A stretch of 64,000 nucleotides of DNA from Acidobacteriota bacterium (GCA_965219005.1 CBDCMS010000004.1:815736-879735); one strand, 5' to 3'. Counted from the first letter of the stretch, positions 1-53,018 are shown. Notes: generated by a model not told the origin, from the letters alone. A program made the numbers and translations.

Positions 1-21
1 GACGATCCGACAATTCAACCG

Positions 22-219
22 CTAGCCACGATCGGAGCCGAGAAACTCAGGAAAGATCGGCTGCGTGTGTTCGACCTTGATCAGGAACCTACGCGTGTTG
101 AGGCGGATTTTGTGATCTGGCCAGCGGACCTTGACTACCCGTCCATGGCACGAAGTCACGATCCCTACCAGGTCGGACCCTGGAAGGGTCACCCTCGAGC
201 CCTTATGAATCTTCTCCAC
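22..219 (-). CDS. Small hypothetical protein, possibly SH3/KOW-like beta-barrel
   Basis: 65-aa ORF with a GTG start and alternating hydrophobic beta pattern (GSRVTL...VGIVT...VVKVRW); no family motif recognised. Confidence 0.3.
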   Translation of the reverse strand: MEKIHKGSRVTLPGSDLVGIVTSCHGRVVKVRWPDHKIRLNTRRFLIKVEHTQPIFPEFLGSDRG

Positions 220-632
220 CGGCCCCCCAGTCGAGCGACGAGTCCCATAGCATCAGCTACCATCTTAGCAGTTTGGTCCGACAAGCTTCTTGTTTCCATG
301 TACTTACCGGTTTTTGAACTATTCCGCAAATGGGCTCGCGGGAACCTACTCGAACTAGAATGACTAGTGGCCGGCGTTCCCCTGGCCGAGGTGAACCAGG
401 GTCTCCTGCCCCTGTTGTACCTTCGCAGGCAATCAGGATACGGTCATCAATTGGTATGCCTCCACATTCCAGTTTGAGTCACTCGACTCTGACCCTTCGA
501 CATTCGCCTGTTCGATATTCTGCGGTTTGTGATTCGGCAGTTGCAGCCTCCAGAGGAGGAAGAAGGCTGAATATGAAATGACGAACCGCAGAACACCGAA
601 CAAGCGAACTCCGAAGTGAACGCAAGACCTAT

Positions 633-890
633 CAAGTTTCAGCTCAGTGGGGCCCCCAGTGGTGCTGGCCACATTCGAGAAAGAAACTTCAGTCGGGATA
701 GGGGAGATTCTGCTGTTGTCCAGCTCTCTCCTCGGAACTTGGGTTCCTATTGCCGAACGGTCAAGTCGTTCGCGGCTCTGCCGGATTTGGCTTCGCAATG
801 CTGGCAGTCTATTCGTACACGGCAACACCTCTTTCCGAACACTGTTCACTGCTCACTGCACTACTGCTCACTATTCAAGTTTCAGCTTAG
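633..890. repeat. Dispersed modular intergenic repeat, copy A
   Basis: Bounded by direct repeats CAAGTTTCAGCTYAG (633-647, 876-890). The core GCTGTTGTCC..CTCTCTCCTCGGAACTTGGG...GTCGTTCGCGGCTCTG and the ACTGTTCACTG-type short repeats align with 48934-49151. Confidence 0.75.
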
Positions 891-934
891 TCCCATCCCC
901 TCGCTTGCGCTTCAGGCTCCTATGGTTTTCGCAT

Positions 935-3900
935 TCATCGAGAGCCTGGACCTGTCACCGTCCTCTGCAACTCGGCCTGCCGGAGCACCCAGGCCCGGAT
1001 AGTCTGGTAGCCCGCATCGTCGGGCTGGTAGCGTCGGCCTCCTTGATGTCCTTCCTCCTGGGGGGTCTGCAGGTCCAGTGGTTTACGCAGGAACCTGCTT
1101 TCCTCCACCTCGTCCAGATTCACCCTCTCCTGCATCTTTCGATAGTTGGCCAGAAGCTCCGCCGGGGCGATGTAGCCGATGGCGTCAGGAGGGTTCAGAT
1201 ACAGGGTTGGCACCCGGCCCGGGACCCCATGACAAGAGATGCAGGCTCTCCCATCGCGCTTGCTGAGCCGCGTCATTTCGGCGAACACCTGGTCCCGGAA
1301 ATCGAGTATGTCCTGGATGAATACCGGCGAAGTCTCCACTCGCGGACCCTGTTGGAGATCGTCGCCGAGCAGGGAATCAATCAGCTTCTGAAGTTCTTCT
1401 CCGTACACCTCGTCGTCGCTGTTGAGGATGTTCTGGATCTGCTTGCGCAGTTCGGGCACTGTTTCTTCTTCCACGTAGTCCGCGAGTGTAGACCGGATGT
1501 CTGGGTTGCGTCGCAGTGTGGTCTTGTTGGCGAGCCTGATAACGGTCTTTCGATCCTTCTCCCGGGTCCGTGGAGAGAACCAGCCAAGAAACATCTGGAC
1601 GACTTGGTGCTTGGTCTGGGTCAGAGGGTCCACCACCTTGATTCCCTGTTCGTTCTCGGTCAGGAGGGAGCCTCGGGCCTGGTCCGGAACTGCTGCCAGG
1701 TAGTCGAGACCGAAAATATAAAGCCGTTCGGCCTCGGGTTGGGCACCCAGCATCCGGATGGTGAGGAGGTTCTTCCCTTCCTGGAATTGATGGACGCCCA
1801 GAGAAACGGGGCCGGTAGGTGTCTGGTCGGGTCGGTACCCCTCCATCTGCTCCACGATCGTTTTCCCATTGAGGGAGAGCGATACATCACCCACATCTCG
1901 GTCATATAGGAAGGCTGCCACCAGTTCGTGAGGACCCGCCTTCTCAACCGGAATCGCGAAGGTAAGGGTCGCTCCCGGAAGTCCTTCTCTCCACCAGAGG
2001 ATGGTGTTCTTGCTGGTGAGGCCGTTGGGGACTATCTGCTCGGTGGTTCTTCCGGCCGTTAGCTCAACCAGCTCCAGGTCTTCCGCTTCGGTGGCTCCCT
2101 CGAGGGCTTGTTCCTGGTTCAGGTCTCTTTCCTGAAACCCAAGCATCCACTCGGTTGAGGGAAGCCAGAATCGGGGAAGCTCGTCCACGAAATCAAAGAC
2201 CAGCTTGCGCTGGAGCGTGGAGTTTTCTCCTAGGATCTGTCCCAGGAGCGTCTCCCTCAGCTCGTCCGTGGTTTCTGTGTACTCCGGCTCTTGGCTCAGG
2301 ATAGGGCGGAAAAGGACGCTGCCCTTGGATGAGGGCCCCTGGCTGGTGGCTCTGATTTAGGGAACCAGCAGGCGGTAGAACTTCTTTTCTCCCCGCTCAT
2401 CCACACCATCGAAGTTCCATTGGATCCTGGCCAGGAAGTTGGTCAAAGCCTGCGCGTCCTCCTGGCGATCCCTTTCCAGGAACGCCCCTAGCTTGGCCAG
2501 AAAAGGCTTGAGGGTCTCAACCGAAGCAGGAAGTGAAAGAGTCCGTGGATTGGACAGAGCTCGGGACGCTGCCGCTACCAGGTCGAGATCTCCGGTCATC
2601 AGGAGGTTAAGCATCTCCTTCTGAAGGGGTGGGTAGCTGGTGTTGGCAGCTGCCTCCAGAGACAGCTGGTCCCAAGGGACCCCAGATCCATCCTCTCCCA
2701 GATGGTAGGTCGCTAGGATGGATCGGCCTACCACTTCGGTGCTTCCTGAGGTGCTGTAGCCGAGTTGGCCGGGTCCACCATCACCGGCGCGCTCCAGGAA
2801 ATGAGTCCCAGCCACAGCCGTAAGTCCCCGGTCCAGCCGCTTCCGGTTTGGGGGCGAAGCAGAAGCGCGTCGCTGGGCTAGCTCTGCGTAGAAGCGGGCT
2901 AGCTCCGGATATTGTTGATCTATGCTCTCGCCTCCGGTCTGATTGGCAATCTGACCGTTGACGATCAGAAGAGACGCGGTGGAGTAGCGGAAAGCCATCT
3001 CTGCCAGCCGCTCGTTCTCTCCCTGGAGCAGGGAGTCGATCCAGGCCCGATTGATGCCGTCGCGCAGGGGAGGATTCCAGACCCACCAGTGCCAAGCCGC
3101 CTTGTGGGCCCAGGCCCGCACGCCTGCGAAAGGATCCTGCATTCCTGCAGAGAGGACATCACCAAGCCGGGATACGGCAGGGCTGCCCGAACCCACGAGA
3201 TCCGCCCGGGTCACCAGGGCCTGCTGGACGGACTGACGTGCCAGCTCGCTTCCGCTTCTGAAGGCCTCCAGGGTCTCGTCCCAGCCCACTCCGTCCAGCA
3301 TCAGTTGCCTCAGGGACCAGAACGCCGCCTCCCGGCAGGACTTGACGGGATCGTCGAGGTGCTCGATCAGGGCCGCGAGACCCTCTGGAGCCAGGGCCCC
3401 TCCAAGACCCAGCAGGGCGTAGTAGCGGATCTGGGGATGGGGGCTGTCGGCTTCCGCGATCATGAGGCGCGCTAATTCCTTGTTGCCGGTTGCTTGCAAG
3501 CGTCGCAAACGCGAGAGCGTGTCGAGGAAGCCCTCCCCAGGCGAAGCTTTCAGCTCCAGTGCACTGGCACGTTTTCGTACCTCGGGGAAGAGTTGGCCCA
3601 ACGCTCGAATCGCATAGGCGGTGGTCACGAAGCCGGTCTGGGCAGCTTTGTTCCAGAGGCCGTAGGGAAATTGATTGGCCATCAACCAGCCCACGGCCCG
3701 CTTTAGGACCGGATCTTCGGCGGTACGGCCGGCGGAGTGGAGGGCAATCAGGGCGACGGCGGTGGGGGCAGCATCTCCCGTCTCCTGCACTCGTCTCCAT
3801 GTCTTTCCCTCGTCCCCAGTCAGCCCCGGTTCAAATCCCCAGCTTCCATCTTCCTGCTGCAGGGCTAGCAGGCGTTGCAGGTCCCTTTGGACCTGGGCCT

Positions 3901-5743
3901 CGAACAGCTTCTGAAACTCTTGCGCCTCGCGGACGCGCTCCTCGTCTTCGGTTAGATGTGCGACCACCTCGGGGTAGTTCCGGGGCCAGAGGCGATGAAA
4001 AAATTCGATCCGGTGGCCCAGGTCATCGCTGACTTTGATCTTGTCATCGCCGGTGTCGACGATCCTTTTTGCCTTCTCCTCCAGACCGAAAAAGTACTTG
4101 GGATCTTCGGTATCCTTCCAAGCCCGGTGCAGGATCTCACCCGCAAACTTGAAGACTACGTTGGGACCGAAGTTGGACCCTCGACCAGCAGCGTTGATGC
4201 CCTTGGGGTCATCGGTCTGGAGGACATAGTTGGCCGTGCGGCGCTGCTGGTAGCGATGGAGTTTCTTGGGACGAAAGGCCCGTTCGTGTAGGACGATGTT
4301 GCGCCCCGCCACGCGGCTCCCAGCCGGGCCATCCCCGAGGTCGTTCGGAGGAAGGCTCGTGTTGACCGCCGCATCCTGCAGCTTTACGGTGGGGCGCAGA
4401 CTTTCGTACATCGTGTTGACCAGGCGGCGCCAGTTCTGTACGGTGCCGTCTGGCCAGTAACCGTTGCGGAAGGCGTCGGCCACTCCCCAGACGCCGGCCT
4501 GGGTGTGACAGCTCATGCAGTTCTCGCCAAACAGACTGGTGCCGTCCCGGACCCGGCGGTGGAGTGCAATGTTTCGGGGCCGATGGATCAGCCAGGCGTC
4601 TACCTGGGCCAGGTGGTAGTAGATGGCGTGCCGCAGGGCTCGCCGTGGGTCGTTGTAGGGAGCCGGCTTTACTAGCCGCAACTCGAGCTCGTAGGCCGGC
4701 TGATTGGCCTCTACCCTTAGAAAGTAGACCCCTCCCGGTTCCAGCTCACGGGTGACAAAAGAGCGAAAGTTCCTGTCCTGCTGGTGGATCCGCTCATTGA
4801 TGTCGCGGCCCTCGTAGTAGCTGAACACGGGGACGGGTCCGGGGATGACCTCGACCAGCGGATGGACGTAGGGGACCTGGGCATTGTTACCCACCTGTTT
4901 GATATCTGGGACCTCCGAAGGTCCGAGCTCTTCTGGTGTGGGCACGCCCAGCCGATACACCCTCAAGCGGGCACTGACGATCGGTTCCACCATCTGGAGA
5001 TTGGCTGTGAGAACCCGGGGCTGCCTTCCCCGGTGTTCAACGCGGAACCAGTCGTCCGGAGAGGCGCCGGAGCGGGTGTTGTTGTAGTACTCCAGATCGT
5101 CGGCACCACCCACAACCCGGATCACCTGGTCCTGGTCCGTGTCCTCAAAGGGCACCAGAACGGCTTGCTCGGGCGTGTTGTTGGGCTCGGCTTCCAGCAG
5201 GAGATCTCCCTTGGAAATCGCGGGAACAGAGGTGACGGATACCCTGATCGGAAGCTGGCTCACCTGGGGGGTTCGAACCGGCAGAGAGGTGGCCCGTTGG
5301 GCCAGACCGGTGTCGCGCCAGATCTTGCCCAGGGGTTGGGAGCGGTCTGTCACGGTTTCCAGGTTGAGGTGGTAGGGGCCAGCCGTGGGGGCCCTGTAGA
5401 CCAGATGCAGGTCCGGGTCCAGCGCATGCAGCGTCTTCTCCCACCCGGTCGAAGCTTTGGCGTCGAGGTCTCCTCGCTTCCCATCGAAAGCCAGATCAGG
5501 AAGATCGGGTCCCCGCCAACGTACCTCGATGCGGGCATTGGGAGGAAGAGAGGAGGGTTCGGGGATGCCCACCGACATCTGAAGGATCTGGTCCCGCTGG
5601 AGTTGCCACTGACGCTCCCAACTGCCTTCGAAAACAACCCACTTCTGGAAGTCGAACGCTCGGTTCCTAGCCAGCTGCGAAGCTCCCAGGCCGATCGCCA
5701 TGAAAGCACAGGCTGGCAGCAGTAATATCCTTCGGCCCGTCAC
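935..5743 (-). pseudogene. Giant exported multidomain protein (PPC-like EPNN domain, CxxCH, QW/prenyltransferase-like repeats, HEAT repeats, CBM-like domain, C-terminal CxxCH), interrupted by one in-frame TAA at 2357-2359
   Basis: ORFs 2357..5743 and 935..2188 are in the same frame (gap 168 nt) and the gap translates openly after the TAA (IRATSQG...LVFDFVDEL). Signal peptide; motifs CMSCH, QQEDGSW, QFPYGLW, CISCHG...KPL...HQGG. Confidence 0.75.
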
Positions 5744-5844
5744 TCAAAATTCCCCGTTAGCGCTTCGAGCAGCGTGAGATCGTAGATTAGATGATAGCCC
5801 CGTTTTTCAAATTCTTCCATGAGGAAAGTTGAGCTGTTGTCCAT
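5740..5844 (-). CDS. Possible 34-aa small ORF translationally coupled to the giant gene
   Basis: AGGAGAGAG directly before ATG; MDNSSTFLMEEFEKRGYHLIYDLTLLEALTGNFE; its TGA overlaps the GTG start at 5743. Confidence 0.35.
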   Translation of the reverse strand: MDNSSTFLMEEFEKRGYHLIYDLTLLEALTGNFE

Positions 5845-5942
5845 CTCTCTCCTGGTGATAGCATTCACGCTAGCTGTTGTGCTGTCGCACCCACCATCGG
5901 GGTCTATCAATGGCTGCGTCTCAGTAGTAGACTGACGGGAAG

Positions 5943-7046
5943 ATGGAGCGACAAAAGCTCGTCTGTGTTGGGATTGTTGTCGTCGCCCTGGGGGCGGTGC
6001 TCGCCCAACAACAGGACCACCAGTCTCGCTACCAATACCACTCAGGAGAGATTTCCATTCCGCCCGCATCGGAAACCGAGCCGTTCCTGCTGGAGTTCTC
6101 TCCTGCCCGAGCCGTCGCCTATATGGAAGAAGGGGCTACGGCCTGGACTCGGGAACGCAAATGTCTGTCCTGTCACACCAACGCCACTTACATGGTCACT
6201 CGCCCGGCGCTGACCAGCAGCCTGGGAAGGCCGTCGGAGGAGCTTCGTGCCTTTGCCATTCAGCAGTTGACTGAATTTCAATCGACCGATCTCGAGAAAC
6301 TCAGGTCGGGCATCAGACCGACCCAGGTGGCCTATCTGGCCCAGGGTATGGCTGAATGGGACGCCCACGTCACCGGCAAGCTCTCTGCCGAAACCGAGGA
6401 CGCTTTGGATTTGATGCTCCAGGTTCAAGGGGAAAGCGGCGACTGGGGCAACACCGATGCATGGCCGCCTTTCGAGTCGAGCAACTATCACTCCACCACG
6501 GTGGCGGCGCTGGCGATGGCCACGGCTCCGGGATGGTTGGCGGTGCGAGCCAAGGACGAGGCCGTAGAGAAGGTGAAAAACTACCTTAAAGGGGGTGCGC
6601 CCCACGACTATGGTCGGCTGCTCCTTCTCTGGGTGGCGACGCGTTGGCCTGGGTTGCTTGACGAGGATGTGAAGCAGAAGTTGATCGCGAACGTCTGGCG
6701 ACATCAGCGAAAAGACGGAGGATGGTCCATTCGTACCTTTTCTTCTCCCGACAAATGGGGAAGGGGCAATCGTGCCGAGAAGCTTCGGGCCGAGGACGAG
6801 TTCCAGAATCCTCCCAGTGACGGTCACCAGACAGGCCTCTGTTTATTGGTGCTGAGGCAGGCTGGGGTTCCGGCAGCCGATCCTCGACTCCAGCGGGCTG
6901 TGAAGTGGCTGTTGAGCCACCAGAGAGAGTCGGGCCGTTGGTGGACACGGTCCCTCAATACCGACAAGTTCCACTTCATCACCTACAGCGGCACCTGTTA
7001 CCCGCTCCTGGCCCTGGACAGCTGCGGGCTGCTCGAAGCCATGTAA
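5943..7046 (+). CDS. Exported prenyltransferase/squalene-cyclase-fold protein with a CxxCH motif
   Basis: Signal peptide (VCVGIVVVALGAVLA), CLSCHT, and QW-type repeats QGESGDW, QRKDGGW, QRESGRW; no DxDD cyclase motif. Confidence 0.85.
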   Translation: MERQKLVCVGIVVVALGAVLAQQQDHQSRYQYHSGEISIPPASETEPFLLEFSPARAVAYMEEGATAWTRERKCLSCHTNATYMVTRPALTSSLGRPSEELRAFAIQQLTEFQSTDLEKLRSGIRPTQVAYLAQGMAEWDAHVTGKLSAETEDALDLMLQVQGESGDWGNTDAWPPFESSNYHSTTVAALAMATAPGWLAVRAKDEAVEKVKNYLKGGAPHDYGRLLLLWVATRWPGLLDEDVKQKLIANVWRHQRKDGGWSIRTFSSPDKWGRGNRAEKLRAEDEFQNPPSDGHQTGLCLLVLRQAGVPAADPRLQRAVKWLLSHQRESGRWWTRSLNTDKFHFITYSGTCYPLLALDSCGLLEAM

Positions 7047-7106
7047 CCCTGGGTCAAATTCGGTCTTGTAGCTTCATCGGGGTTATTGCAGTCCGGGAAG
7101 GTCTTG

Positions 7107-7210
7107 GCAATAACGCTTACAGCGTAGAGACTGAAATGGGTATGACTAGACCCAGGGTAGCTCGCTTCGCATCGCAACCCTGGGCTACACGCAGTAACGC
7201 CTTCGGCGTA
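7107..7210. repeat. REP-like palindromic element
   Basis: CCCAGGGT...ACCCTGGG inverted repeat (7151-7184) between two related short hairpins, GCAATAACGCTTACAGCGTA and GCAGTAACGCCTTCGGCGTA. Confidence 0.55.
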
Positions 7211-7235
7211 TGTGATAGGCCCACTGATCCACGTA

Positions 7236-7325
7236 AAGTTTCTTTCCTGTACGATCCAGCGCAGTCGGTGGCGTCGCTAAACTGAAAGTTCATTCGCTAA
7301 CGTGGCTTCGGTCTCCAGGCCGAAG
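7236..7325 (-). repeat. Dispersed modular repeat, copy B (inverted)
   Basis: Its reverse complement contains CTTCGGCCTGGAGACCGAAGCCACG, TGAACTTTCAGTTTAG and GGATCGTACAGGAAAGAAACTT, matching 48778-48948. Confidence 0.7.
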
Positions 7326-7502
7326 GTCTAATCGCGAAATATCGCAGTTGGCAACCGTCGAATCACAAACCGCAGACGTCGAACGTGCGAGGTGTGAAGG
7401 GCAGAATCGCGGCCTTTCTTCGCGCAGAAGCCCCGCGACGTCGATCTAGTCAATTTAAACTTGCCGACGCTCGGGGCGTGATTGTGTACTATCGGTAGGG
7501 CC

Positions 7503-8837
7503 ATGGACGAAAGATCGGGCACGGCGGTATCATTGGCAGCTTCTTCCAAGATTCCCCTCTTCCCAGTCCTGCTGGTGAATTTCATCGGGTCTCTCGGTTT
7601 TAGCATCGTATTGCCCTTCCTTGTGTTCGTCGTCCTGAAGTTCGGAGGCAACCCCGTCGTCTATGGACTGGTAGGAGCCACATATCCGGCTCTCCAGCTT
7701 CTGGGCGCACCGATTCTTGGCCGCTGGTCGGATCGCTACGGCCGAAAGAGGATCCTGCTGATCAGCCAGATAGGAACACTGATTTCCTGGGTCATCTTCG
7801 CAGCTGCCCTGTTTCTTCCTCGGACCATCCTCGCGAGTGTCGAGTCTTCCCTGTTGGGCAGTTTCACCCTGACGCTTCCGTTGGCGTTGGTCTTTGTAGC
7901 CCGAGCTCTGGACGGTCTCACGGGTGGCAACGTCTCGGTTGCAAATGCCTACGTGGCTGACATCACGTCGGAAGAGGAACGCAGCCAGAGTTTCGGCCGC
8001 ATGGGTGTAGCCTCGAATCTGGGATTCATCGTTGGTCCGGCCCTGGCAGCGTTACTGGGAGCGACGGCCCAGGGTGAGAGTCTCCCCATTTTTGCAGCTC
8101 TTCTGATTTCGCTCGTGGCCGCCGTTCTGATTGCGGTCCGGTTGCCGGAGTCGAACCCCTGTGCTCTCGAGCACGGCCCCGAGGTAGCCGACCTGAACCG
8201 GGTATTCGGGCACGAACACAAGGACTGTGTTGAGTTTCAGGACGGCGATGAAGCCAAGCTCAAGGACGCATTGGACAGACCGGGCATGGTATCCATCCTG
8301 GCGCTCTATTTCGTGGTGTTCCTTGGATTCAACTTCTTCTACACGACATTCCCGGTGCATGCAGCCGGAGTCCTCAGCTGGACGGTCATCGATACCGGCG
8401 TGTTTTTTGCTACTCTCAGCTTTTTCCTGGTGTTGGTACAAGGACCCGTTCTGGAACGGCTTTCCAAAGTAGTCTCGGAGGATCGACTGATCCTCGTTGG
8501 CAGTCTGGTTCTGGGCAGTAACTTTCTGCTGATGCTGTCACACGATGCTGGCGTCATCTACATGGCGGCCGTTCTCTTTGCTGTGGGCAACGGAATCATG
8601 TGGCCTTCGGTACTGTCGTCGCTCTCGAAACTAGCTGGAGAGCGATATCAAGGTGTGGTGCAAGGCTTTGCCGGTGGAATCGGTGGACTCGCCAGCGTCC
8701 TCGGTCTCATCCTCGGCGGTCTCCTCTACGAAAGAATCGGAGGGTTGACCTTCGCGGTATCGGCGGGACTCATCTATCTGAGCTCCGTGATTTCCCTACG
8801 GCTACTCTCGCCTGCCAAGCGCGCAAGAAAGCAATGA
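7503..8837 (+). CDS. MFS transporter (TetA/DHA1-like)
   Basis: About 12 hydrophobic helices, motif A GRWSDRYGRKR, ARALDGLTGGN and motif C GFIVGPALAALLG; ATG 7503 preferred over the upstream GTG. Confidence 0.9.
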   Translation: MDERSGTAVSLAASSKIPLFPVLLVNFIGSLGFSIVLPFLVFVVLKFGGNPVVYGLVGATYPALQLLGAPILGRWSDRYGRKRILLISQIGTLISWVIFAAALFLPRTILASVESSLLGSFTLTLPLALVFVARALDGLTGGNVSVANAYVADITSEEERSQSFGRMGVASNLGFIVGPALAALLGATAQGESLPIFAALLISLVAAVLIAVRLPESNPCALEHGPEVADLNRVFGHEHKDCVEFQDGDEAKLKDALDRPGMVSILALYFVVFLGFNFFYTTFPVHAAGVLSWTVIDTGVFFATLSFFLVLVQGPVLERLSKVVSEDRLILVGSLVLGSNFLLMLSHDAGVIYMAAVLFAVGNGIMWPSVLSSLSKLAGERYQGVVQGFAGGIGGLASVLGLILGGLLYERIGGLTFAVSAGLIYLSSVISLRLLSPAKRARKQ

Positions 8838-8877
8838 GTGCACTGTTTCAGTTCCACACAGGAGTAGTCTGACAAGG

Positions 8878-9429
8878 ATGTTTTCCAGAATGATCCTGAT
8901 GATTTTGCTAGGCCTCTGCTCCACCCCTTGCTCTTCCACCCCTTGCTCGCAGGAAAGCGAAGAACCTTCTCACAGTGGAGTCGAGACAAGTCAATTCCGA
9001 TTGAGCCTCCGGGATACCGACTATTCCATGGCTCGCACCAGGATCTACCAGCTGACGAACGATCAGCTTTCCATCACGGTAGGTGGCATTCAGCGCGATC
9101 AGGATAGGCTCGTTTTCAAGCACAAATTCGATAGTGAAGAGAAGGCAGAAGTCGTCCGTTTGCTCGACCCGATTGATTTCGAAGGGTTGAAGAAACGATA
9201 TTCGAATGACTGTATGGATGATGGCTCACAGATCGTCTTGGATTTCAGAAGAGACACCTTGGAGCGATCGGTTCATCTGAACAACTATTACCTCGAAGAG
9301 GTCGCAGGAATAGTGGAGTTCACAAACTCGATCGCTCCTAAGCACCTTGCGATCTGGTACGACCGCGAACGATTGCTCAAGGCTTTGGAGCGCTGCGAGA
9401 AGCGGCGGGCTGCTCCTTCCCGAAGGTAG
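8878..9429 (+). CDS. Hypothetical exported protein or lipoprotein
   Basis: ATG start, hydrophobic signal ending LLGLC; co-oriented downstream of the MFS gene. Confidence 0.7.
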   Translation: MFSRMILMILLGLCSTPCSSTPCSQESEEPSHSGVETSQFRLSLRDTDYSMARTRIYQLTNDQLSITVGGIQRDQDRLVFKHKFDSEEKAEVVRLLDPIDFEGLKKRYSNDCMDDGSQIVLDFRRDTLERSVHLNNYYLEEVAGIVEFTNSIAPKHLAIWYDRERLLKALERCEKRRAAPSRR

Positions 9430-17822: not shown

Positions 17823-18851
17823 TCAGCGCGCTCTCCAGTAGCGGTAGTGAGCCAATCCCACGAGGGCATTGCAAGTAGTGTTCAGGCGGAGCTCCAGTGA
17901 TTGTTCGTTGCCGTCCCCTCCCACCGCATCACCCCACCACTGTCCGTCGGGCTGCTGGTGTTGGAGGATGTAGGAGGCAATTTGCCTTGCCGCCACCCGA
18001 TAGGGTTCATCGGGTGCCACCTGGTACAACTCGGCCAGGCCCCAGAGGAACTTGTGGGCTTCGACACAGCTGTAGATCCCTTCGGCCCCGGTCAAGATAG
18101 TGTTCGTGTATTGCCGGGCAGCCTCGAGGTACTTGTTCTCCCTGGTCAGGCGGTAGAGCTTGACCAGGAACACCTGAACTGGTCCCAGGCGGGCAGGGCG
18201 CTGTTTGATTCCCCCTCGATCCACGTAGTCCCGGCTTGTCTGCTGTAGCAGCAGCTGACGGGTTCCATCTGATTTGTATTCGAGGGCCAGATAAATCCCG
18301 CTCTCGCGGTCAGGTTGCATCTCCAACAGGGCGATCAAGAAATCCGCAGTTCGCCGTGCCGCGGTCACGTGACCCGTGGCCAGTAGCCCGAGTCCCGCGA
18401 ATCCAGCGGTCATTGCATGCTCGACGCTATTACCACTATCGAGCGCGGCCTTGGTGTCCCGGAGTCCACCCGTGTCCGGATTCTGATGGGTAAGGATGTC
18501 TTGGGCCAGCGGAAGGGCAATATCATATCGGCCGCACATCTCGGCACCCCACACCAGCCAGCCGCGATCGTAGGTATTGGTCCATCGGGACGCTTCCTGC
18601 TCTGCCGGGATTTCCAGCTGACCACGGTCTCCCAGGAATCGGGAGGCGATCCAGTCCAGGCTGGAGAACGCCGACTGGAACGCGCCATTGATGGCGAGAC
18701 TCGCTGGAACCTTGTAGTAGAGCCCAGCCTGGTCCGAAGCGAGAATGCTGCCCCGCTCATCCATCATAGATTCGATCCAGCGGCAGCCTCTGTCGAGGCT
18801 CTCAGCCAACTGCTGCTCGCCAGGGGTCTCGTTCGGTTCTGTCACGGACAT
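17823..18851 (-). CDS. Hypothetical (alpha/alpha)6-barrel protein
   Basis: QxxDG-like repeats (QNPDTGG, QQPDGQW) and helical periodicity; GGAGGGG RBS upstream of ATG 18851. Confidence 0.7.
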   Translation of the reverse strand: MSVTEPNETPGEQQLAESLDRGCRWIESMMDERGSILASDQAGLYYKVPASLAINGAFQSAFSSLDWIASRFLGDRGQLEIPAEQEASRWTNTYDRGWLVWGAEMCGRYDIALPLAQDILTHQNPDTGGLRDTKAALDSGNSVEHAMTAGFAGLGLLATGHVTAARRTADFLIALLEMQPDRESGIYLALEYKSDGTRQLLLQQTSRDYVDRGGIKQRPARLGPVQVFLVKLYRLTRENKYLEAARQYTNTILTGAEGIYSCVEAHKFLWGLAELYQVAPDEPYRVAARQIASYILQHQQPDGQWWGDAVGGDGNEQSLELRLNTTCNALVGLAHYRYWRAR

Positions 18852-18879
18852 GGAGCCCCTCCGCTTTGATTGGTCATGG

Positions 18880-19839
18880 CTAATAGGAGAGTGCACTGAT
18901 TCGCCACGGGGCTACCCGAACGGGAATTGTCCTTGGCATTGTTGCCTCAAGGTAACGCGGATAATCCTCTCTGGGCGGACTTTGTGGGGCTGCCTCCAGC
19001 TCCAGCAGACGCTGAATTCGCTCCTCGGTCTCGGGGTGCGTGCGAAACAGAGACAGGGACGGTACTCGGTGTCCAACTGGGAAGATCCGTTGTAGCCATC
19101 CTTTTTGGATGCGTTCCATTTTCGCCAATGCTCTTGCCAAACCGCGTGGATTGCCTGTCAAGCGGGCGGCGTCCAGGTCGGCTTCAAACTCTCGGGTTCG
19201 AGAGAGTGCCAGTTGCAGGAGCGCGCTGGCTGTCGGCGCGCTGATCAGGAGCAAGACGAGCAGCCAGGGGAACTGGTACGCATCCATCATCAACATGGGA
19301 AGATTGAATAGCAGCATAAGCTGTCCAATCCAGGAAAGAGTCCCTGTCACCCGGCTGACCCCGTCGGCGAGCCCCATGACCCAGAGGTCGTTGTTGCGAA
19401 TGTGGCTGACTTCGTGGGCGAGAACACCGGCCAACTCCTCCTGGTTGAGAGTCCGGAGGAGGCCATCGGTGAGGCCCAGGGCGGCATCATTGCGCCCCCC
19501 GACAGCGAACGCATTGACCACTCGGCTGGGTACATAGTAGAGGTTGGGCAAACCAGGCAGTTGTGCTCGTTTAGCCAGAGTGCTTACGATACGGAACAAG
19601 CCGGGGGCTTCATAGGGCGAAAGCGGGCGGGCCTGATGCAGACGAAGGACTAGTCTCGGCGAAACCTTTGGCCCGAGTAGGAGAAAGAGCGATCCCAGTA
19701 GCATCAGCCACAGCAGTCCATCGCTGCCAGTCAGAGACCACCCCATCGCTGCCAGCAACCCCAGCATCCCCGTAACCAACAGGACCGACTGCAAGAAATT
19801 GGCGACTTTCCGTTTCACAACTCGTTCTCTGCGAATCAT
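18880..19839 (-). CDS. htpX: M48 family zinc metalloprotease (HtpX-like)
   Basis: NAFAVG, LAHEVSHIRNND (HExxH), SRTREFEAD, THP; N-terminal TM helices. Confidence 0.88.
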   Translation of the reverse strand: MIRRERVVKRKVANFLQSVLLVTGMLGLLAAMGWSLTGSDGLLWLMLLGSLFLLLGPKVSPRLVLRLHQARPLSPYEAPGLFRIVSTLAKRAQLPGLPNLYYVPSRVVNAFAVGGRNDAALGLTDGLLRTLNQEELAGVLAHEVSHIRNNDLWVMGLADGVSRVTGTLSWIGQLMLLFNLPMLMMDAYQFPWLLVLLLISAPTASALLQLALSRTREFEADLDAARLTGNPRGLARALAKMERIQKGWLQRIFPVGHRVPSLSLFRTHPETEERIQRLLELEAAPQSPPREDYPRYLEATMPRTIPVRVAPWRISALSY

Positions 19840-24115: not shown

Positions 24116-24910
24116 ATGCAAGTATCGGCATCAGAGGCGGCGTTGCTCAATTTCCACGAACGTCGTGCCGGCGCGAGTGCATTCGTTTTCGGCGACGCGG
24201 CAGACGAGAGTGGCGCTAGCAGCTATGAACGTTTAGTACAGCGCCTACCAGCGAGCCGTGTACGCATTCTCGACCTCGCATGCGGCGATGGCATGCTGCT
24301 TTCGTTGATTGGAAGCAACCACGACGCGATCGGGCTCGACCTCTCGTATCATGAGCTACGTGCCGGTCGGGCACGGACTAGCCGCCCACTAGTGCTCTCT
24401 CGTGCGCAGCGATTACCTTTCACGACGGCCCAGTTCGAATGCCTGGTCTGCCATATGGCGCTTATGCTGTTCGACGATTTAGACGAAGTAGTGGCCGAGC
24501 TCGCTCGTGTCTTGGCGCCAAGGGGTCGTCTTCTCGCCGTGGTCGGACGAAGCGGCGACATGGGGGACTCGGCAAGACGCCTGTCGGTTCTCTCAACGCA
24601 GTGGCGGCGCGACACCACGCTAACGATTGGCGATGTTCGCGCTGGATCACCTGAGGGTCTGGCGGAGGTATTCTCGGGAACTAGCTGGTGCGACCTTGAA
24701 GTGGAGGATTTCTCGGTCAGGCTTCGCGTGCCGTCCGATGAGATTTTCCGATGGCTCGAAAACGCGTTCTATCACATCGATCTGATGCCGCAAGACGCCA
24801 AGCTCCGGTTGTCCGAGTTCGTCGAAAAAAATCAGCGTGAGCTCGCCGAAAACGGCTTCATGCCCTGGACACTGAACATGCGGTTGGTCTCCGTCACTCG
24901 GGCCTCATAG
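24116..24910 (+). CDS. Class I SAM-dependent methyltransferase
   Basis: Motif I ILDLACGDG, GLDLS, FECLVC, RVLAPRG. Confidence 0.85.
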   Translation: MQVSASEAALLNFHERRAGASAFVFGDAADESGASSYERLVQRLPASRVRILDLACGDGMLLSLIGSNHDAIGLDLSYHELRAGRARTSRPLVLSRAQRLPFTTAQFECLVCHMALMLFDDLDEVVAELARVLAPRGRLLAVVGRSGDMGDSARRLSVLSTQWRRDTTLTIGDVRAGSPEGLAEVFSGTSWCDLEVEDFSVRLRVPSDEIFRWLENAFYHIDLMPQDAKLRLSEFVEKNQRELAENGFMPWTLNMRLVSVTRAS

Positions 24911-35137: not shown

Positions 35138-38100
35138 TCAGAAGGAGAACTTCAGGGCAAGCTGAATCTGTCGTGCAGCCAACGCTTTTCCCAGGACTCC
35201 GAAGCCACCGGTTCCGTATTGGAGGGTCTGATGACGATTGGTGATCAGGAAGTTGGCGCGATTGGTGGCGTTGAAGGCCTCCAGTCGAACCTCCAGCCTT
35301 CGCCCTTCCCCCAGCAGGAAGGTCCGCCTCAGTGAAATATCCAGATTGAACAGCCCCGGGCCTTCCACGGCTCCCCTACCTGCGTTTCCGTATTGAAACG
35401 GTGGCGGCAGGACGAAGGCAGTCGTGTCAAACCATCGGGCCGCTGTCCTTTGAGCATTGGGCAGGTTGGCATCCCGGAGCCGGTCCGGCCACTGGGAGGT
35501 TTCAGACCCAGCATCGACAGGATCACCAGGCAGCGTCACAGTGCGCCAACCGCCGTCCTGGAAATTGGAGATGGCCCGGATGGACCAGCCCTCCAGCAGG
35601 CGAGAGGCGACGCCCTGACGAACCAGGGCCCTGGTCGGTCCAAAGGGCAGATCGAAGCCACCCGAGAGCATCACGTGCATGGGTACATGGAAGTCGGCCA
35701 CTCCCCGGGTCGCCTCCAGAGGCAGGTTGCGGGATCGGAATGTCCGGAGACTCTGGAAGCCCGTCGTCCCGCCTCCGGTCTGGATGAGTCGGGACCAGCT
35801 GAGGGAGGCCAGCAGGTAGAGGCCCTCGGGCCCGGCGGCCTTTTCCAGCTGAAGATGCATGCCCTGGTACCACGAATCCGCGTCCGCCATGGGGAAGTAG
35901 ATGGCCTGAAGATGGGGCAGAGGGCGTCGAAGTTGACGGTCCTCGGTCCCTGGAACGGCGTCGTTGAGGGAGACCGTCTCGATTCGGTGGGTGGAGCGGG
36001 AACCGTGATAGCCCCCATCCAGGAGCCACCGGCTGCTGAGTTCGTGCTGCAGGCTGAGACCCCAGGAGTGGGTTCTCGACAGCGGCAGGGGTGTCTCCAT
36101 TCCGAAATGGTCGGGAACGGCTTCACCCAGTCCATCCTCGGGAAAGGGCGTGGACAGGAAGAGGGACGGTGTATCGAGGGCACTGTTGAAGGTGGGGCGC
36201 TCCGCCCCGGGACGGGGATTACGGCTCAATCGCAGCACGTTGTTGAGGTCCGGTTCGTTGGAGTGGATGCCATATCCCGCACGCACCACTGTCTTGTCGG
36301 CCAGTCGGAGGGAAAGGCCGAGGCGCGGCAGGAACCCCTCCAACTGGTTCCAGCGCACCAGGGGATAGTCGGGCAGGAAACGGCCTGTTTCACCGGGTTT
36401 CAACTCCAGATCCTGCAGCGGAGGAAAGACCTGCCCCGTCGCCGGGTCCAGGTTGGACATGAATCCCCGCTTGTCCTTCCAGGGGAGCCGCAGCTCGTAG
36501 CGAAACCCCAGGTTCAGCGTCAGGCTTGGACTGGCTTTCCAGCTGTCCTGGAAGTACACGTAGTAGCTGTCCTGATGAAATCTGCCCCGGGAATCCTCTC
36601 CTCCAAGGTGGCTCTGGACCAGAGAACCCAGGAGAAAATCGGCGAATCCGTTGCCCGAGTAGCGATCGAAGAACGTGAATCGACTACGCCGCTCGGTCAC
36701 GTAGTGGTTGTAGTGTCTGCGGTAGTGGAGGCCGATCTTCAAAGCATGATCCCCCTGCAGGAGGGAGAGATCGTTCTTGACCTGCCAGTTGCCCAGGGAG
36801 GATGGGCCCAGGTAGGGGTAATCCCCGATCCCGGTGTAGCCCTGGACCTCCACCGCTGGGATTCCAGTCCGATCCACCTCGCTCTCCAGCAGCTCCGGGA
36901 TGCCGAGATCCTCCACCCCCCGACTCGGAGGCCGTGCGGTCTCGTAGGGTCTGCGGAACCAGTGGAAGCTGGCAACGTTTTGGGCCTTGGCCCCCAGGCT
37001 CCTGTCATAGGACAGAACCTGCCCCCAGGTGCTCATGGGGTGGCGCGCAGAGAAGGTGCTGAAGGGTCGGGTCGAAGTCCAGTGGTTGGAGTCCCAGACG
37101 AAGCGGCCGGCCCAACGGCTCACGTCCGAGGTCTTCAGGTCGACACGAGCGATGACCTGGGGATTGTCCACAGGACTTCTGGAATCGGGACTCGTGAAGT
37201 TCAGGGCGCCTGAAGTGTTGGGTTCGGGCCAGTAGGGGAGCAGCTTCGAGGCCACCGGATCCACGCGGCTCGGGGGGATCTGGTTTCCGGGGAAAGGCTT
37301 TCCAGTCAGCGGATCCACAATTGGTTCGGAGAACTGTCCCCGCTTCTCCTCCAGGGTGGGGACGACTGCCGTCAGGGGCTTGGTCTCCCGAACGGATCGC
37401 AGCTGGTAGGAGCAGAAGAACCAGGCCTTGTCTCGGCTGCCCAACAGACCCGGAATCACCAGAGGTCCTCCCAGCGTCGCTCCCAGTTGGTTGCGTTTGA
37501 ATTCCGCCTTCTCCTGTTCGAAGAAATTCCGGGCATCCAGGTTGTCGTTGCGGTGGAACCAGAAGAGATTGCCATGGAGATCGTTGCTTCCGCTCTTGGT
37601 CACCGCGACGATCTGCCCACCTGGTCGGATACCGTACTCCGGCGAGTAGTGGCCCGTCTTGACATCGAACTCCCGGATGGCATCCGGGCTGGCCTGGAAG
37701 GAGGCGCCGCCGTCTCCGTGGGTGAAAAGCGTGCCGTCGATATAGGTCAGATTGTCCCGACTCCTCATACCCAGCACCTTGACGGTGCGGCTTCGGCTCT
37801 CGCTGCTGGGCGTCGCCCCCGCCGCCAGACCGGCCAGTTGACCCACGTCTCGGGTGTTGACCGGGAGGCTCTCCAGTTTTTCCTGATCGATGACCTGACC
37901 CCGGTCCTGTCGGCTGGCTCCCGAGAAGACGGACCGGCTCCTGGTCGTCTGAGTGACCCCGGCACCTCCTCCAGAGAGGCGAAAGTCCTCCTGGCAAATC
38001 TGGCCCACCATCAGTCGAACGTGGGTACGCAGCTGGGTGCGGTATCCCGGCAACGATGCCCGGATCTCGTAGCTGCCCGGGGCCAGGCCGCTTCGCCGAT

Positions 38101-38332
38101 AGTCTCCTTTTGCATTCGTCAACAACAGGAAGCCTTCATTGGTTTCGACCCGGTGGATCGTGACCTCCACGCCAGGAACAGGCTGGCCCAGATCGTCACG
38201 AATGCTGCCCAGGAGGGTTCCCGTACCCATCTGAGCGGGGAGCCGGTGGGAAAGACAGGCCAGGAGTGCCAGCAATGCCAGCCCTGCACCGACCCAGACT
38301 CTTCGATCACGAGGATTTCGCTGAAACCACAT
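35138..38332 (-). CDS. TonB-dependent receptor with N-terminal carboxypeptidase-regulatory-like domain (Oar/Acidobacteria type)
   Basis: Signal peptide, GSIRDDLGQPVPGV, TKSGSNDLHG, RNDNLDARNFF, YFQDSWK..LTLNLGFRYE, terminal RQIQLALKFSF. Confidence 0.92.
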   Translation of the reverse strand: MWFQRNPRDRRVWVGAGLALLALLACLSHRLPAQMGTGTLLGSIRDDLGQPVPGVEVTIHRVETNEGFLLLTNAKGDYRRSGLAPGSYEIRASLPGYRTQLRTHVRLMVGQICQEDFRLSGGGAGVTQTTRSRSVFSGASRQDRGQVIDQEKLESLPVNTRDVGQLAGLAAGATPSSESRSRTVKVLGMRSRDNLTYIDGTLFTHGDGGASFQASPDAIREFDVKTGHYSPEYGIRPGGQIVAVTKSGSNDLHGNLFWFHRNDNLDARNFFEQEKAEFKRNQLGATLGGPLVIPGLLGSRDKAWFFCSYQLRSVRETKPLTAVVPTLEEKRGQFSEPIVDPLTGKPFPGNQIPPSRVDPVASKLLPYWPEPNTSGALNFTSPDSRSPVDNPQVIARVDLKTSDVSRWAGRFVWDSNHWTSTRPFSTFSARHPMSTWGQVLSYDRSLGAKAQNVASFHWFRRPYETARPPSRGVEDLGIPELLESEVDRTGIPAVEVQGYTGIGDYPYLGPSSLGNWQVKNDLSLLQGDHALKIGLHYRRHYNHYVTERRSRFTFFDRYSGNGFADFLLGSLVQSHLGGEDSRGRFHQDSYYVYFQDSWKASPSLTLNLGFRYELRLPWKDKRGFMSNLDPATGQVFPPLQDLELKPGETGRFLPDYPLVRWNQLEGFLPRLGLSLRLADKTVVRAGYGIHSNEPDLNNVLRLSRNPRPGAERPTFNSALDTPSLFLSTPFPEDGLGEAVPDHFGMETPLPLSRTHSWGLSLQHELSSRWLLDGGYHGSRSTHRIETVSLNDAVPGTEDRQLRRPLPHLQAIYFPMADADSWYQGMHLQLEKAAGPEGLYLLASLSWSRLIQTGGGTTGFQSLRTFRSRNLPLEATRGVADFHVPMHVMLSGGFDLPFGPTRALVRQGVASRLLEGWSIRAISNFQDGGWRTVTLPGDPVDAGSETSQWPDRLRDANLPNAQRTAARWFDTTAFVLPPPFQYGNAGRGAVEGPGLFNLDISLRRTFLLGEGRRLEVRLEAFNATNRANFLITNRHQTLQYGTGGFGVLGKALAARQIQLALKFSF

Positions 38333-41215: not shown

Positions 41216-41247
41216 CCCCACTGAAGAGCTCGAGCTCTTCAGTGGGG
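41216..41247. repeat. Perfect 32-bp loopless palindrome over the transposase stop codon
   Basis: CCCCACTGAAGAGCTC|GAGCTCTTCAGTGGGG. Confidence 0.9.
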
Positions 41248-42594
41248 CCAATCCGGAACCTCGTCCCAGAACAGCGAGTCGTCGGAGGCTCGAACGGCTT
41301 GAGCCTGCTGGGGGGAAAGTTCCGCCAGAAAGTGTTCCAGCTTCTGCGGAAACAACCGGGGTGGGGGCGCCCGTTGCGGCCCTTGCCCCAGCTTCAAATG
41401 CGCCAGAATCCGGCGGATCACATGAGGCTGCTCGATCACCGCGATCACGCGCAGAGAGCTGCCGCAACCACAGCGCAAGGGATCGACGTCATAGATCTTG
41501 CGGAGCAGACGAGCCCAGCTACGACGGCGCCTGAAGCGCTCGGCCGCGGACTCCTCCTCGACGGAGCGGTCCTCGGAGAGCGGGCCGTGGACGGCTTTCT
41601 GCTGCTGCCGTCGTTTCCCACGTGAGGCGCTAGCGTAACGGCCATAGTAACGGATTTGGTGCTCATTTCGATCGGGGATATGCGAGCAGACCCGGGCCCT
41701 CCAGTCCAAGGCATCCAGCGACTGCAGCGTCCCCTTGCCGGTGCGGTAGAGGATCTGGCCGCGATCGCTCTGATAGTCGAGGCGGGAGGCGGCGAAACTG
41801 GGACGTCGAATGTAGGCGGCCAGACGCTCCAGAGCCGGGCGATCCTCGGGGGGAACACCTCGAGAGGAGTAGACCCCGAATCCGGAGGGAGACCAGGCGC
41901 GCAACTTCTGGGCGAACTCCGGACTGAGTCGATGCTGCTGGACCATCATCTCCAAGACCCGGTGTTGGAACAGGCGGCTGAGTAAAGAGGAGTCGAAGCC
42001 GCCGATCGAGACCCCACGGCCGTCCCCATTCCAGGCCGTGTCGCTGACCAGCCCATGGAGGTGAGCGTGAGGTCGCAAGTTGTCGCCCCAGGTCTGGGTG
42101 GTCAGGATGGCCCCCGGAACCGAGCCGGGCCCCAAGCGGCTTTGGACATAGTCCCGGAGACTGGCCCAGGCGCAGCGGCAGAGCTCTCCCAAGAGCTTTC
42201 GGTCTTTGTAGAAGGCCGGACGCAGGACCCTCGGAATCGTCCACACCAGCTGCCGGTGGTCGACCTCCTCGAGCACCTCCTCCAGCACCTGTTCCAGGAA
42301 AGCAGCCACCTGCTTGGCTTGGCAACTCGGACAAAAACAGCGCGTTTTGCATGAAAATGCCAACAACTGCTCCCGTCGACAGTCGGAGCAGCGCAGGCGG
42401 GCGAATCCATGACGAAGGATCCCACATTGGAGGAAACGTTCGACGGTTTTCTCCACCACCGGACGCCAGGGCCCATAGTCTCTCTCGTAGAAGTAGGGAT
42501 AGGCCTCCTTGAACTCTTCCCAGTAGTCCTCCAGACACTGGTAGAAGGCGGTGTGCTCGGGATGACGGGGCCGGTAGGTGCCAGCGAGGGGCAT
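41239..42594 (-). CDS. IS91-family HUH transposase (zinc-binding domain + Y2_Tnp-like domain)
   Basis: CGILRHGFARLRCSDC...FSCKTRCFCPSC, HUH PHAHLH, RLAAYIRRP, IRYYGRY, CGCG...IRRILAHL...RAPP. Confidence 0.92.
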   Translation of the reverse strand: MPLAGTYRPRHPEHTAFYQCLEDYWEEFKEAYPYFYERDYGPWRPVVEKTVERFLQCGILRHGFARLRCSDCRREQLLAFSCKTRCFCPSCQAKQVAAFLEQVLEEVLEEVDHRQLVWTIPRVLRPAFYKDRKLLGELCRCAWASLRDYVQSRLGPGSVPGAILTTQTWGDNLRPHAHLHGLVSDTAWNGDGRGVSIGGFDSSLLSRLFQHRVLEMMVQQHRLSPEFAQKLRAWSPSGFGVYSSRGVPPEDRPALERLAAYIRRPSFAASRLDYQSDRGQILYRTGKGTLQSLDALDWRARVCSHIPDRNEHQIRYYGRYASASRGKRRQQQKAVHGPLSEDRSVEEESAAERFRRRRSWARLLRKIYDVDPLRCGCGSSLRVIAVIEQPHVIRRILAHLKLGQGPQRAPPPRLFPQKLEHFLAELSPQQAQAVRASDDSLFWDEVPDWPH

Positions 42595-52741: not shown

Positions 52742-53018
52742 CTAGTACCCTGTAGCACAGATTATGACGGATTTGTGGCGAGCGCGACGGGTCGAGATCG
52801 CGAAGAGACGACGAATGCCATGCTTTGCCATAGTGGAGGAGGAGCGACAAAGATATCGGCCCGTCCCGTCGCCACCCGTAGGGCAGATGGGGGTTGCGGA
52901 CGATCTCTGCGTTGGTCGTCGTCGAAGATAGCCAAGCATCATCTTCCTCCTCCTGCCTTGATCTCGCCTCACAAGCCCCATCTGCAAATCCATCATAATC
53001 TGTGTTACAGGGTACTAG
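52742..53018. mobile_element. ~270-bp MITE with 34-bp terminal inverted repeats at a CTAG site
   Basis: CTAGTACCCTGTAGCACAGATTATGACGGATTTG (52742-52775) vs the reverse complement of 52985-53018: 32/34; no internal ORF. Confidence 0.85.

Follow-up and report, generated by a model that had tools for sequence, protein, structure and literature searches.

Two divergent genes, here named S and B, occupy positions 935 to 7046 of a 64,000-nucleotide stretch of DNA from an Acidobacteriota bacterium (GCA_965219005.1, CBDCMS010000004.1:815736-879735), the whole of which is called the window below. The reading that we favour, and regard as rather likely, is that S and B represent two separate, uncharacterised families of Sec-exported c-type hemoproteins, each placed on a toroid resembling that of the terpene cyclases and lacking the cyclase acid motif. 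The evidence combines CxxCH motifs conserved across both families, N-terminal export signals, QW repeats and modelled helical folds. An original prediction, made from the sequence of this region, had named most of the individual elements and had further joined the two proteins in one redox system; the elements are largely upheld here, and the system is not. The layout of the locus is as follows.

5943..7046, + strand: gene S, encoding a 367-residue exported single-toroid protein with one CxxCH (open reading frame and translation)
935..5743, - strand: gene B, encoding an exported multidomain, putatively diheme protein of ~1602 codons, with one nonsense codon inside (translation)
5744..5942: divergent intergenic region between B and S, 199 bp (from the gene coordinates)

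The toroid and candidate heme motif of S

The smaller protein shows a simple order of features.

5943..6008, + strand: signal peptide or N-terminal anchor, residues 1-22, MERQKLVCVGIVVVALGAVLAQ (sequence; helix 2-22 in the model)
6102..7022, + strand: (alpha/alpha)6 toroid of 12 helices, residues 54-360 (AlphaFold2 (AF2) secondary structure, Foldseek, profile match)
6162..6176, + strand: candidate heme c attachment motif CLSCH, residues 74-78 (C74, C77 and H78), followed by the invariant T79
S residues 160-168, 255-261 and 327-333: QW-type repeats

Exactly one CxxCH is present in each of the 120 S homologues retrieved, where the amino acid composition of S would give a chance count of 0.0026, and C74, C77, H78 and T79 are invariant across a 99-sequence alignment (the other cysteines of S are residues 8, 300, 352 and 361). 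Identity is 52-86% among the best 120 homologues, and the family is large, with more than 1481 homologues and more than 1400 clusters at 90% identity, mainly from Planctomycetota. Read from the sequence, the N termini of both S and B have a basic n-region followed by hydrophobic residues and then an end rich in Ala, and they form a helix in the AF2 models, in agreement with the signal peptides originally called in both genes. No twin-arginine motif is seen in S, so the signal is best classed as Sec type. Because CxxCH is invariant in hundreds of homologues and export is of the Sec type, heme attachment is a supported reading of these motifs, which at the level of sequence behave like heme c attachment sites.

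The AF2 model of S, built with 99 homologues, has a predicted local distance difference test score (pLDDT) of 92.9 and a predicted template-modelling score (pTM) of 0.89, and it runs from the N-terminal signal helix through a short beta hairpin to twelve helices that make up one (alpha/alpha)6 toroid. In this model, CxxCH lies in the loop between helix 1 (54-72) and helix 2 (80-94). When the model is compared with the PDB by Foldseek, drimenyl diphosphate synthase, squalene-hopene cyclase and MstE-type cyclases come out on top, and a mycobacterial polysaccharide hydrolase (a glycoside hydrolase (GH) toroid) and the thioester domains (TED) of alpha-2-macroglobulin (A2M), C5 and TEP1 are matched as well, all with template-modelling (TM) scores of ~0.4-0.55. 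Single-protein and profile sequence searches of solved structures found no close one. On the model, the fold class of S is clear, with no close structure to accompany it.

The placement of the candidate heme on this fold can be approached through conservation. The S family profile matches squalene-hopene cyclase with an E value of 8e-17, and in this match D293-G-H295-Q of S is aligned with P310-V-W312-D313 of the cyclase, SDGHQTG as a whole corresponding to cyclase residues 309-315; these residues, W312 and D313 included, line the cyclase cavity. About 55 residues are invariant in S, many of them polar or aromatic, and they are concentrated in loops preceding inner helices, where W174-P-P-x-E178-S, D222-Y223, S292-D-x-H295, N339 and H344 are found. 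The strongly conserved loops all precede even-numbered helices, with WPPxES before helix 6, HDY at helix 8, SDGHQTG at helix 10 and NTDxxH before helix 12. As these motifs lie at even helices and SDGHQTG aligns with the cavity, we infer from the topology an inner position for the even helices and a probable place for CxxCH on the active-site face of the toroid, among the invariant loops. No invariant Met is present in the 99-sequence alignment, and Cytochrome_CBB3 gives sub-threshold matches in 20 of the 99 members.

Modules and candidate hemes of B

The larger protein combines the same two kinds of motif with a series of further modules, listed here from its N terminus.

5669..5743, - strand: signal peptide, residues 1-25 (sequence; helix 9-25 in the model)
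5354..5650, - strand: N-terminal beta-sandwich, residues 32-130 (AF2 strands, pLDDT ~90)
4670..5254, - strand: second beta-sandwich, PPC-like, residues 164-358 (AF2 strands, motif pattern)
5177..5194, - strand: EAEPNN, within the second sandwich
3584..4648, - strand: helical cytochrome-plus-toroid-like module, residues 366-720 (AF2 helices, Pfam, hhalign, invariant columns)
4505..4519, - strand: first candidate heme motif CMSCH, residues 409-413
4400..4417, - strand: NTMYES, containing the invariant Met445
B residues 629-635 and 691-697: QW repeats
2366..3562, - strand: HEAT/ARM solenoid, residues 728-1126 (Pfam, alphaRep matches, Foldseek)
2357..2359, - strand: in-frame TAA at codon 1129; the linker here, which follows the HEAT domain, is poorly conserved
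1664..2101, - strand: beta-sandwich like a carbohydrate-binding module (CBM), about residues 1215-1360 (profile against PDB)
938..1351, - strand: C-terminal cytochrome c domain, residues 1465-1602
1229..1243, - strand: second candidate heme motif CISCH, residues 1501-1505
1037..1048, - strand: HQGG, residues 1566-1569

B is read in a single frame from 5743 down to 935 on the minus strand, with 1602 codons and one in-frame TAA. Its homologues are single proteins of 1585-1607 residues, which agrees with the length of about 1600 residues that had been expected were the stop repaired. Identity to the homologue P0132 is 63%, the window protein being aligned over P0132 residues 29-1598. There are only six cysteines among the 1602 residues (12, 409, 412, 803, 1501 and 1504), and four of the six fall within two CxxCH motifs, for which amino acid composition gives a chance count of 0.0004. 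Two CxxCH motifs are found in 117 of the 120 B homologues and one in the other three; CMSCHTQ is invariant across a 50-sequence alignment, as are the C, C and H of the second motif across one of 30 sequences. The CxSCHT motif announced for both proteins is located as CLSCH in S and CMSCH in B, and it is conserved among homologues.

The first motif of B lies in a cytochrome-like context. Pfam Cytochrome_CBB3 is matched there in 30/30 members (E <=0.05, best 6e-7) and Cytochrom_C in 28/30, and in the window protein the Cytochrome_CBB3 match covers residues 397-445, ending at the invariant M445, with SQHop_cyclase_C following at 615-705. From this pattern, Met445 is probably the distal ligand of the first heme, which would give His413/Met445 ligation. 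The AF2 model of B residues 1-1128 (pLDDT 80.6, pTM 0.83) shows about thirteen helices in residues 366-720. Foldseek of this 1128-residue model is dominated by HEAT/ARM solenoids and gives no information on the core. A comparison of the S family with the core by hhalign aligns it over B 622-718 with a probability of 96.6%.

At the other end of the protein, HQGG stands exactly 61 residues after the second heme histidine in 116 of the 120 B homologues, and a second heme would probably be ligated His/His through HQGG. Searching the last 138 residues of B against 1.84 billion representative proteins returned only 101 relatives. Those outside the B family are multidomain cytochromes in which the matched stretch coincides with Cytochrom_C or CBB3 matches, and the C terminus of B can therefore be described as a divergent small cytochrome c domain; some of its distant relatives carry PSCyt1, PSD2 or PSD5. 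Invariant motifs, export of the proteins and the cytochrome context in B support heme c as a putative cofactor, as the original prediction had it.

The remaining modules were examined in the same way. For the sandwich at residues 32-130, no family match was obtained. The EPNN/PPC-like domain proposed at the outset keeps a tentative place: an EAEPNN...DDWF pattern and the modelled beta-sandwich point to it, and Pfam PPC (PF04151) is matched in just 1/30 members (E 0.0016). The HEAT repeats, the CBM-like sandwich and the second CISCH...HQGG module, all foreseen for the larger protein, were recovered. Pfam HEAT is matched in 30/30 and HEAT_2 in 29/30 members, with alphaRep matches down to E 2.4e-16, and Foldseek concurs. 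In the CBM-like module, profile positions 1254-1354 correspond to residues 37-135 of 138 in the xanthan-binding module MiXBM (7ehg, E 4.9e-8), and a Paenibacillus xanthan lyase (6f2p, residues 769-910) is matched with an E value of 5.9e-6.

Judged by sequence, S and B stand outside the terpene cyclases, without DxDD, didomain architecture or a full-length model match. As had been anticipated, DxDD is present in neither window protein; it is found in 0/120 S homologues, and in B homologues at scattered, unconserved positions only. SQHop_cyclase_C exceeds its cut-off of 26.1 in both window proteins (28.9-31.1 bits) and is matched in 99/99 S and 30/30 B members, with the match confined to the last 90-120 residues, or last third, of each helical module. 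These matches and a QxxxGxW-type pattern search bear out the QW repeats described for both proteins. NCBIfam hopene_cyclase gives 28-38 bits, far short of its cut-off of 431, and the two-barrel beta-gamma architecture of ~600-700 residues is not seen, S being one 12-helix toroid in 367 residues. The absence of DxDD, the single rather than didomain toroid of S and the export of both proteins agree with the earlier statement that this is not a hopanoid enzyme. No PSCyt domain (PSCyt1, PF07635) is matched in S or B at E <=0.1, and no cysteine of either protein stands in the context of a CxEQ thioester motif.

Separate distribution of S and B and the stop codon in B

The distribution of the two families was followed through synteny. 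Scanning one genome per species gave 80 B loci, and 81 S loci (80 metagenomic loci and Gimesia aquarii) formed the corresponding S set; all open reading frames within 10 kb of these loci were clustered de novo. All 80 B loci belong to Acidobacteriota (Bryobacterales, Terriglobia and UBA6911), often with two copies per genome, and the B family comprises more than 600 clusters from soil, marine and sponge-associated Acidobacteriota. S is found mostly in Planctomycetota, its named homologues being in Gimesia, Symmachiella and Pirellulaceae. The nearest relatives of both window genes are in metagenome-assembled genomes of Acidobacteriota, 'UBA6911' among them.

In the original prediction, S and B make up a single heme-dependent redox system with two components, placed in the periplasm or outside the cell, a proposal that we now consider very unlikely. 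It could draw on the divergent arrangement, which is found here and in three other loci (L005-L007), and on the presence of CxSCHT followed by QW repeats in both proteins. However, L005-L007 are relatives with 87-88% identity and are the only three of the 80 B loci in which S adjoins B. The arrangement is missing at the other 77, namely the next-closest L008 (78%) and L009 (84%) and 75 more, and B was found in 0/81 S loci, so that co-occurrence of the pair is essentially absent beyond three close relatives. S is abundant in Planctomycetota, where no B homologue was retrieved; the two genes have no conserved neighbours in common; and in the window B is disrupted whereas S is intact. S and B are best read as two independent genes, adjacent through lineage-specific gene order only.

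De novo clustering revealed no conserved neighbours of S or of B. Those of B are lineage-limited only, with an acyl-CoA synthetase in 27/80 loci and an FAD oxidoreductase in 22/80, and those of S come only from highly paralogous families (DUF1501, sulfatase, DUF1553 and SDR). Assigning a function from operon or context was rejected, as neighbours of these kinds offer no functional lead. In a group of marine metagenome loci (L099, L106, L087, L088, L086 and L090), S directly follows, in the same orientation, either a DUF1553-DUF1501 pair or a DUF1501 gene. This position after DUF1501/DUF1553 is taken oftener than expected for an immediate neighbour, but these families have very many paralogues and some of the loci, several in number, are interrelated, so it is a weak lead. 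In the window, the neighbours of S and B are an MFS transporter, a VWA protein, an esterase, a gamma-glutamyltranspeptidase and others, which suggests no operon around the pair. A promoter and terminator scan found no sigma-70-like site in 5744..5942, a region without anything above shuffled background. The remaining open reading frames listed in the S/B interval were treated as spurious, since they overlap two genes with hundreds of conserved homologues.

The in-frame TAA divides B into an open reading frame of 1128 residues (2357..5743) and 473 further codons. The site reads GAA (Glu) in L005-L007, with Glu in the four closest homologues, and the TAA of the window is thus a single G-to-T change. 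An identical TAA is present in a second contig, L165 (ctg249476_4x_l), which is 99.93% identical over 9 kb (window 1..9000). Sequencing error is therefore unlikely to be the cause, the same base being found in the second contig, although the two assemblies may share reads. L165 is a second assembly of the same population in which B is called as pieces of 403, 596 and 126 residues; its alignment to the window has 4 mismatches and 2 gap openings, and the gap openings may include frameshifts. Compared with three relatives, the ratio of nonsynonymous to synonymous substitution rates (dN/dS) is 0.14-0.16 for the part before the stop and 0.16-0.17 for the part after it, and such like values on both sides indicate that the lesion is recent. 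As the part after the stop lacks a separate signal peptide, the C-terminal third of B would be neither exported nor matured with heme. In this genome B is probably a recent, non-functional pseudogene, with S intact.

Interruption of B is not confined to the window. While 74 of 82 loci are uninterrupted, six are disrupted at scattered sites (approximate residues 100, 197, 230, 404 and 505), and broken copies elsewhere, ~7% of copies, are found in L009, L020, L047, L051, L081, L166 and L167. Stops interrupt L020 and L051 near residues 404 and 505, the linker that holds the window stop is frameshifted in L047, and ~1.17 kb is inserted in L081. In L166 (about 7520..7560) and L167 (B homologue P0153), which are two assemblies, an in-frame stop lies ~50 residues past the position of that in the window. 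Taken together, these disruptions look like recurrent decay of a dispensable, often duplicated gene rather than recoding.

The converse view, that the TAA is no defect and serves programmed read-through or a deliberate split into a short and a long isoform, is one to which we give hardly any credence. The position of the stop in a poorly conserved linker would suit it, as would the 473 intact codons downstream that remain under the same purifying selection, and the stop of L166/L167 and the frameshift of L047 fall close by; programmed recoding was considered for that nearby stop in the second lineage. It was rejected as the main explanation, since the other disruptions are scattered along the gene and most loci have none, and the three closest relatives carry GAA at the site. 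Moreover, a separately translated C-terminal part would lack a signal peptide, and no recoding signal was seen, none having been searched for.

Proposed role, rival readings and wider meaning

When S and B are placed beside known systems, each comparison accounts for a part of their architecture. Class II terpene cyclases such as squalene-hopene cyclase, drimenyl diphosphate synthase and MstE share with them the alpha/alpha toroid and QW repeats, but S and B lack DxDD or DxD, have an invariant CxxCH and are exported instead of being cytoplasmic or monotopic; S, moreover, is a single toroid, and TM scores are ~0.5. Class I c-type cytochromes resemble both proteins in having CxxCH(T) after an N-terminal helix and Sec export, and resemble B in a probable distal Met at heme 1 and His at heme 2; in S and at heme 1 of B, however, the motif is followed by a helical toroid of ~300 residues, not by the cytochrome fold of ~100 residues. 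A2M/TED proteins have beta-sandwiches and an alpha/alpha toroid in ~1600 residues, as B does, and Foldseek matches C5, A2M and TEP1, whereas S and B have no CxEQ, sandwich domains are few and the TM score for B is <=0.2.

CBM-tethered extracellular cytochromes are known from Cellvibrio, where Cbp2D and Cbp2E presumably deliver electrons to chemistry on bound polysaccharide or accept them from it. By architecture they are like B in joining a secreted c-type cytochrome to CBMs, and differ in having neither toroid nor HEAT domain. We know of no earlier account of a heme c carried by an alpha/alpha toroid, and full-text literature searches turned up no description of a heme-bearing cyclase-like protein or toroid. 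The nearest thematic relatives are the multidomain cytochromes of the Planctomycetes-Verrucomicrobia-Chlamydiae (PVC) type (PSCyt1-3/PSD1-5; DUF1549-DUF1553 with DUF1501), large exported proteins of unknown function that combine small cytochrome c, CBM and protein-interaction modules (PMC5615132). These are abundant in the same kinds of bacteria, but S and B have no PSCyt or PSD Pfam match, and their toroid and the HEAT core are foreign to those families. The 'SHC-like' clade of PMC12324236 is set among cyclase clades there, without heme being ascribed to it, and seems to be distinct from the S family.

In the model that we consider most likely, a heme of S would be bound through C74 and C77, with H78 as ligand, on a loop leading into an inner helix, and would cap a ligand pocket on the toroid face beside invariant polar and aromatic loop residues, H295 or H344 being the likely sixth ligand or a catalytic residue. 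In B the order would be a signal peptide, two beta-sandwiches (one of them PPC-like), a heme-plus-toroid core, a HEAT scaffold, a CBM-like module and a terminal cytochrome c, with a class-I-like heme 1. Both proteins would then most likely act as periplasmic or extracellular oxidoreductases or electron-relay proteins, in which the sandwiches, the CBM and the toroid pocket would bind a ligand other than protein (either a glycan or an isoprenoid or lipid) and the hemes would shuttle electrons between this ligand site and the respiratory chain, the terminal cytochrome of B serving as a relay. The motifs with their conservation, the folds, the domain homologies, the lack of synteny and the nonsense codon are observed, whereas attachment of heme, its ligands, its place on the toroid and a role in redox chemistry belong to the model. 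It is tempting to go further and see in the S family and the B core a class of periplasmic heme enzymes, with heme c capping a cyclase-derived toroid pocket and a fold whose evolution was for holding isoprenoids or glycans turned into a redox catalyst, a suggestion that we make tentatively and with some doubt. Isoprenoid lipids, quinones or glycans at the planctomycetal and acidobacterial cell envelope would, for example, be oxidized or cleaved.

Several observations weigh against the reading of S and B as toroid-borne hemoproteins with such a role. The model of B is poorly defined right at CMSCH (pLDDT ~41 for residues 388-411), where the loop may need its cofactor. The cytochrome Pfam matches of the window proteins lie under the curated cut-off (18.9 bits versus 27 for B) or, for S, are absent at E <0.1. 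Homology between S and B is detectable by BLASTP and hhalign only over the last ~95 residues, the QW repeats, so that a full S-like module inside B is unproven by sequence, and the argument for a shared heme-on-toroid design comes from the parallel order of motifs and the predicted helices. So high a conservation along all 1600 residues of B (57-65% within an order) is unusual for a secreted protein acting on glycans, and gene neighbourhoods give no pointer to a substrate or redox partner. Finally, if heme 1 of B is six-coordinate with His/Met ligation, it would be an electron carrier and not a catalytic heme.

In a rival view, the toroids are only binding or scaffold modules, comparable to TED or CBM, and S and B serve purely to shuttle electrons or as structural parts of the envelope, without catalysis on the toroid. 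This seems to us unlikely on the whole, while deserving serious attention. The probable His/Met ligation of heme 1 in B is what electron carriers usually have, TED domains are matched by Foldseek no less well than enzymes, B is rich in binding and scaffold modules, and CBM-bearing PVC cytochromes are already a known theme (PMC5615132). On the other hand, the ~55 invariant residues of S, situated in loops before inner helices, resemble an active site more than a docking surface, and S has no invariant Met for ligation of the carrier type.

A different objection concerns the motif itself, which might be a metal site (Zn, Fe or Cu) or a redox disulfide on the toroid rather than a heme site. Two kinds of alpha/alpha toroid that alkylate thiols bind zinc, through Cys/Cys/His in LanC cyclases and Asp/Cys/His in the beta subunits of protein prenyltransferases. 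Here the motif stands on a toroid at the N-terminal side of an inner helix, as those zinc ligands do, and the cytochrome Pfam scores of S are sub-threshold only. Nevertheless, the zinc ligands of LanC and the prenyltransferases are spread across helices and not contiguous as in CxxCH, and no fourth conserved Cys or His partner accompanies the motif here. When CxxCH(T) is unbroken and invariant and the protein is exported by Sec, it forms the canonical signature of heme c; the B sequence G-x-x-L-F-x-x-x-C-x-x-C-H-T has the pattern of class I cytochromes, cytochrome hidden Markov models match in 30/30 members, and the domain around the second motif of B is a homologue of genuine cytochrome c domains. 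We accordingly hold a metal or disulfide site to be improbable, and retain heme c as the preferred reading of the CxxCH motifs in both families.

Elsewhere in the window, some features touch on the same themes. A third alpha/alpha-toroid-like open reading frame at 17823..18896 on the minus strand encodes 357 residues with weak Pfam GH88 and SQHop_cyclase_C matches and one QW-like string; it has no CxxCH or signal peptide and is therefore unrelated to the heme idea. At 51275..52726 and 53015..56128, both on the minus strand, a classic 'planctomycete-specific' pair is present in this acidobacterial genome, one member being a PSCyt1-PSCyt2(DUF1549)-PSD1(DUF1553) cytochrome and the other a DUF1501 protein; the PSCyt1-type cytochrome has two CxxCH motifs, at 55973..55987 and 55073..55087. 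A CLVCH at 24440..24454 (+) lies in a 268-codon open frame overlapping a 264-residue S-adenosylmethionine (SAM)-methyltransferase reading frame (24116..24910), and probably represents a chance match or a site for metal instead of heme. An IS91-family transposase (Zn_Tnp_IS91 and Y2_Tnp) is encoded at 41239..42594 (-). A large outer-membrane beta-barrel resembling a TonB-dependent receptor, with an N-terminal CarboxypepD_reg domain, is found at 35138..38332 (-) and is consistent with a polymer-scavenging lifestyle.

Both families, large and strongly conserved as they are, at present carry no annotation beyond 'prenyltransferase/squalene oxidase repeat' or 'HEAT repeat', and many S homologues appear as 'squalene-hopene cyclase' at the Joint Genome Institute (JGI), so that surveys of hopanoid cyclases by domain matches may miscount proteins of the S and B type. 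S is small, has a confident model and has homologues in cultured planctomycetes, for example Gimesia and Symmachiella, and is for these reasons readily testable. If the hemes are real, S and B would be c-type cytochromes on a scaffold that no described cytochrome has, and would present a fold derived from terpene cyclases with a task other than carbocation chemistry.

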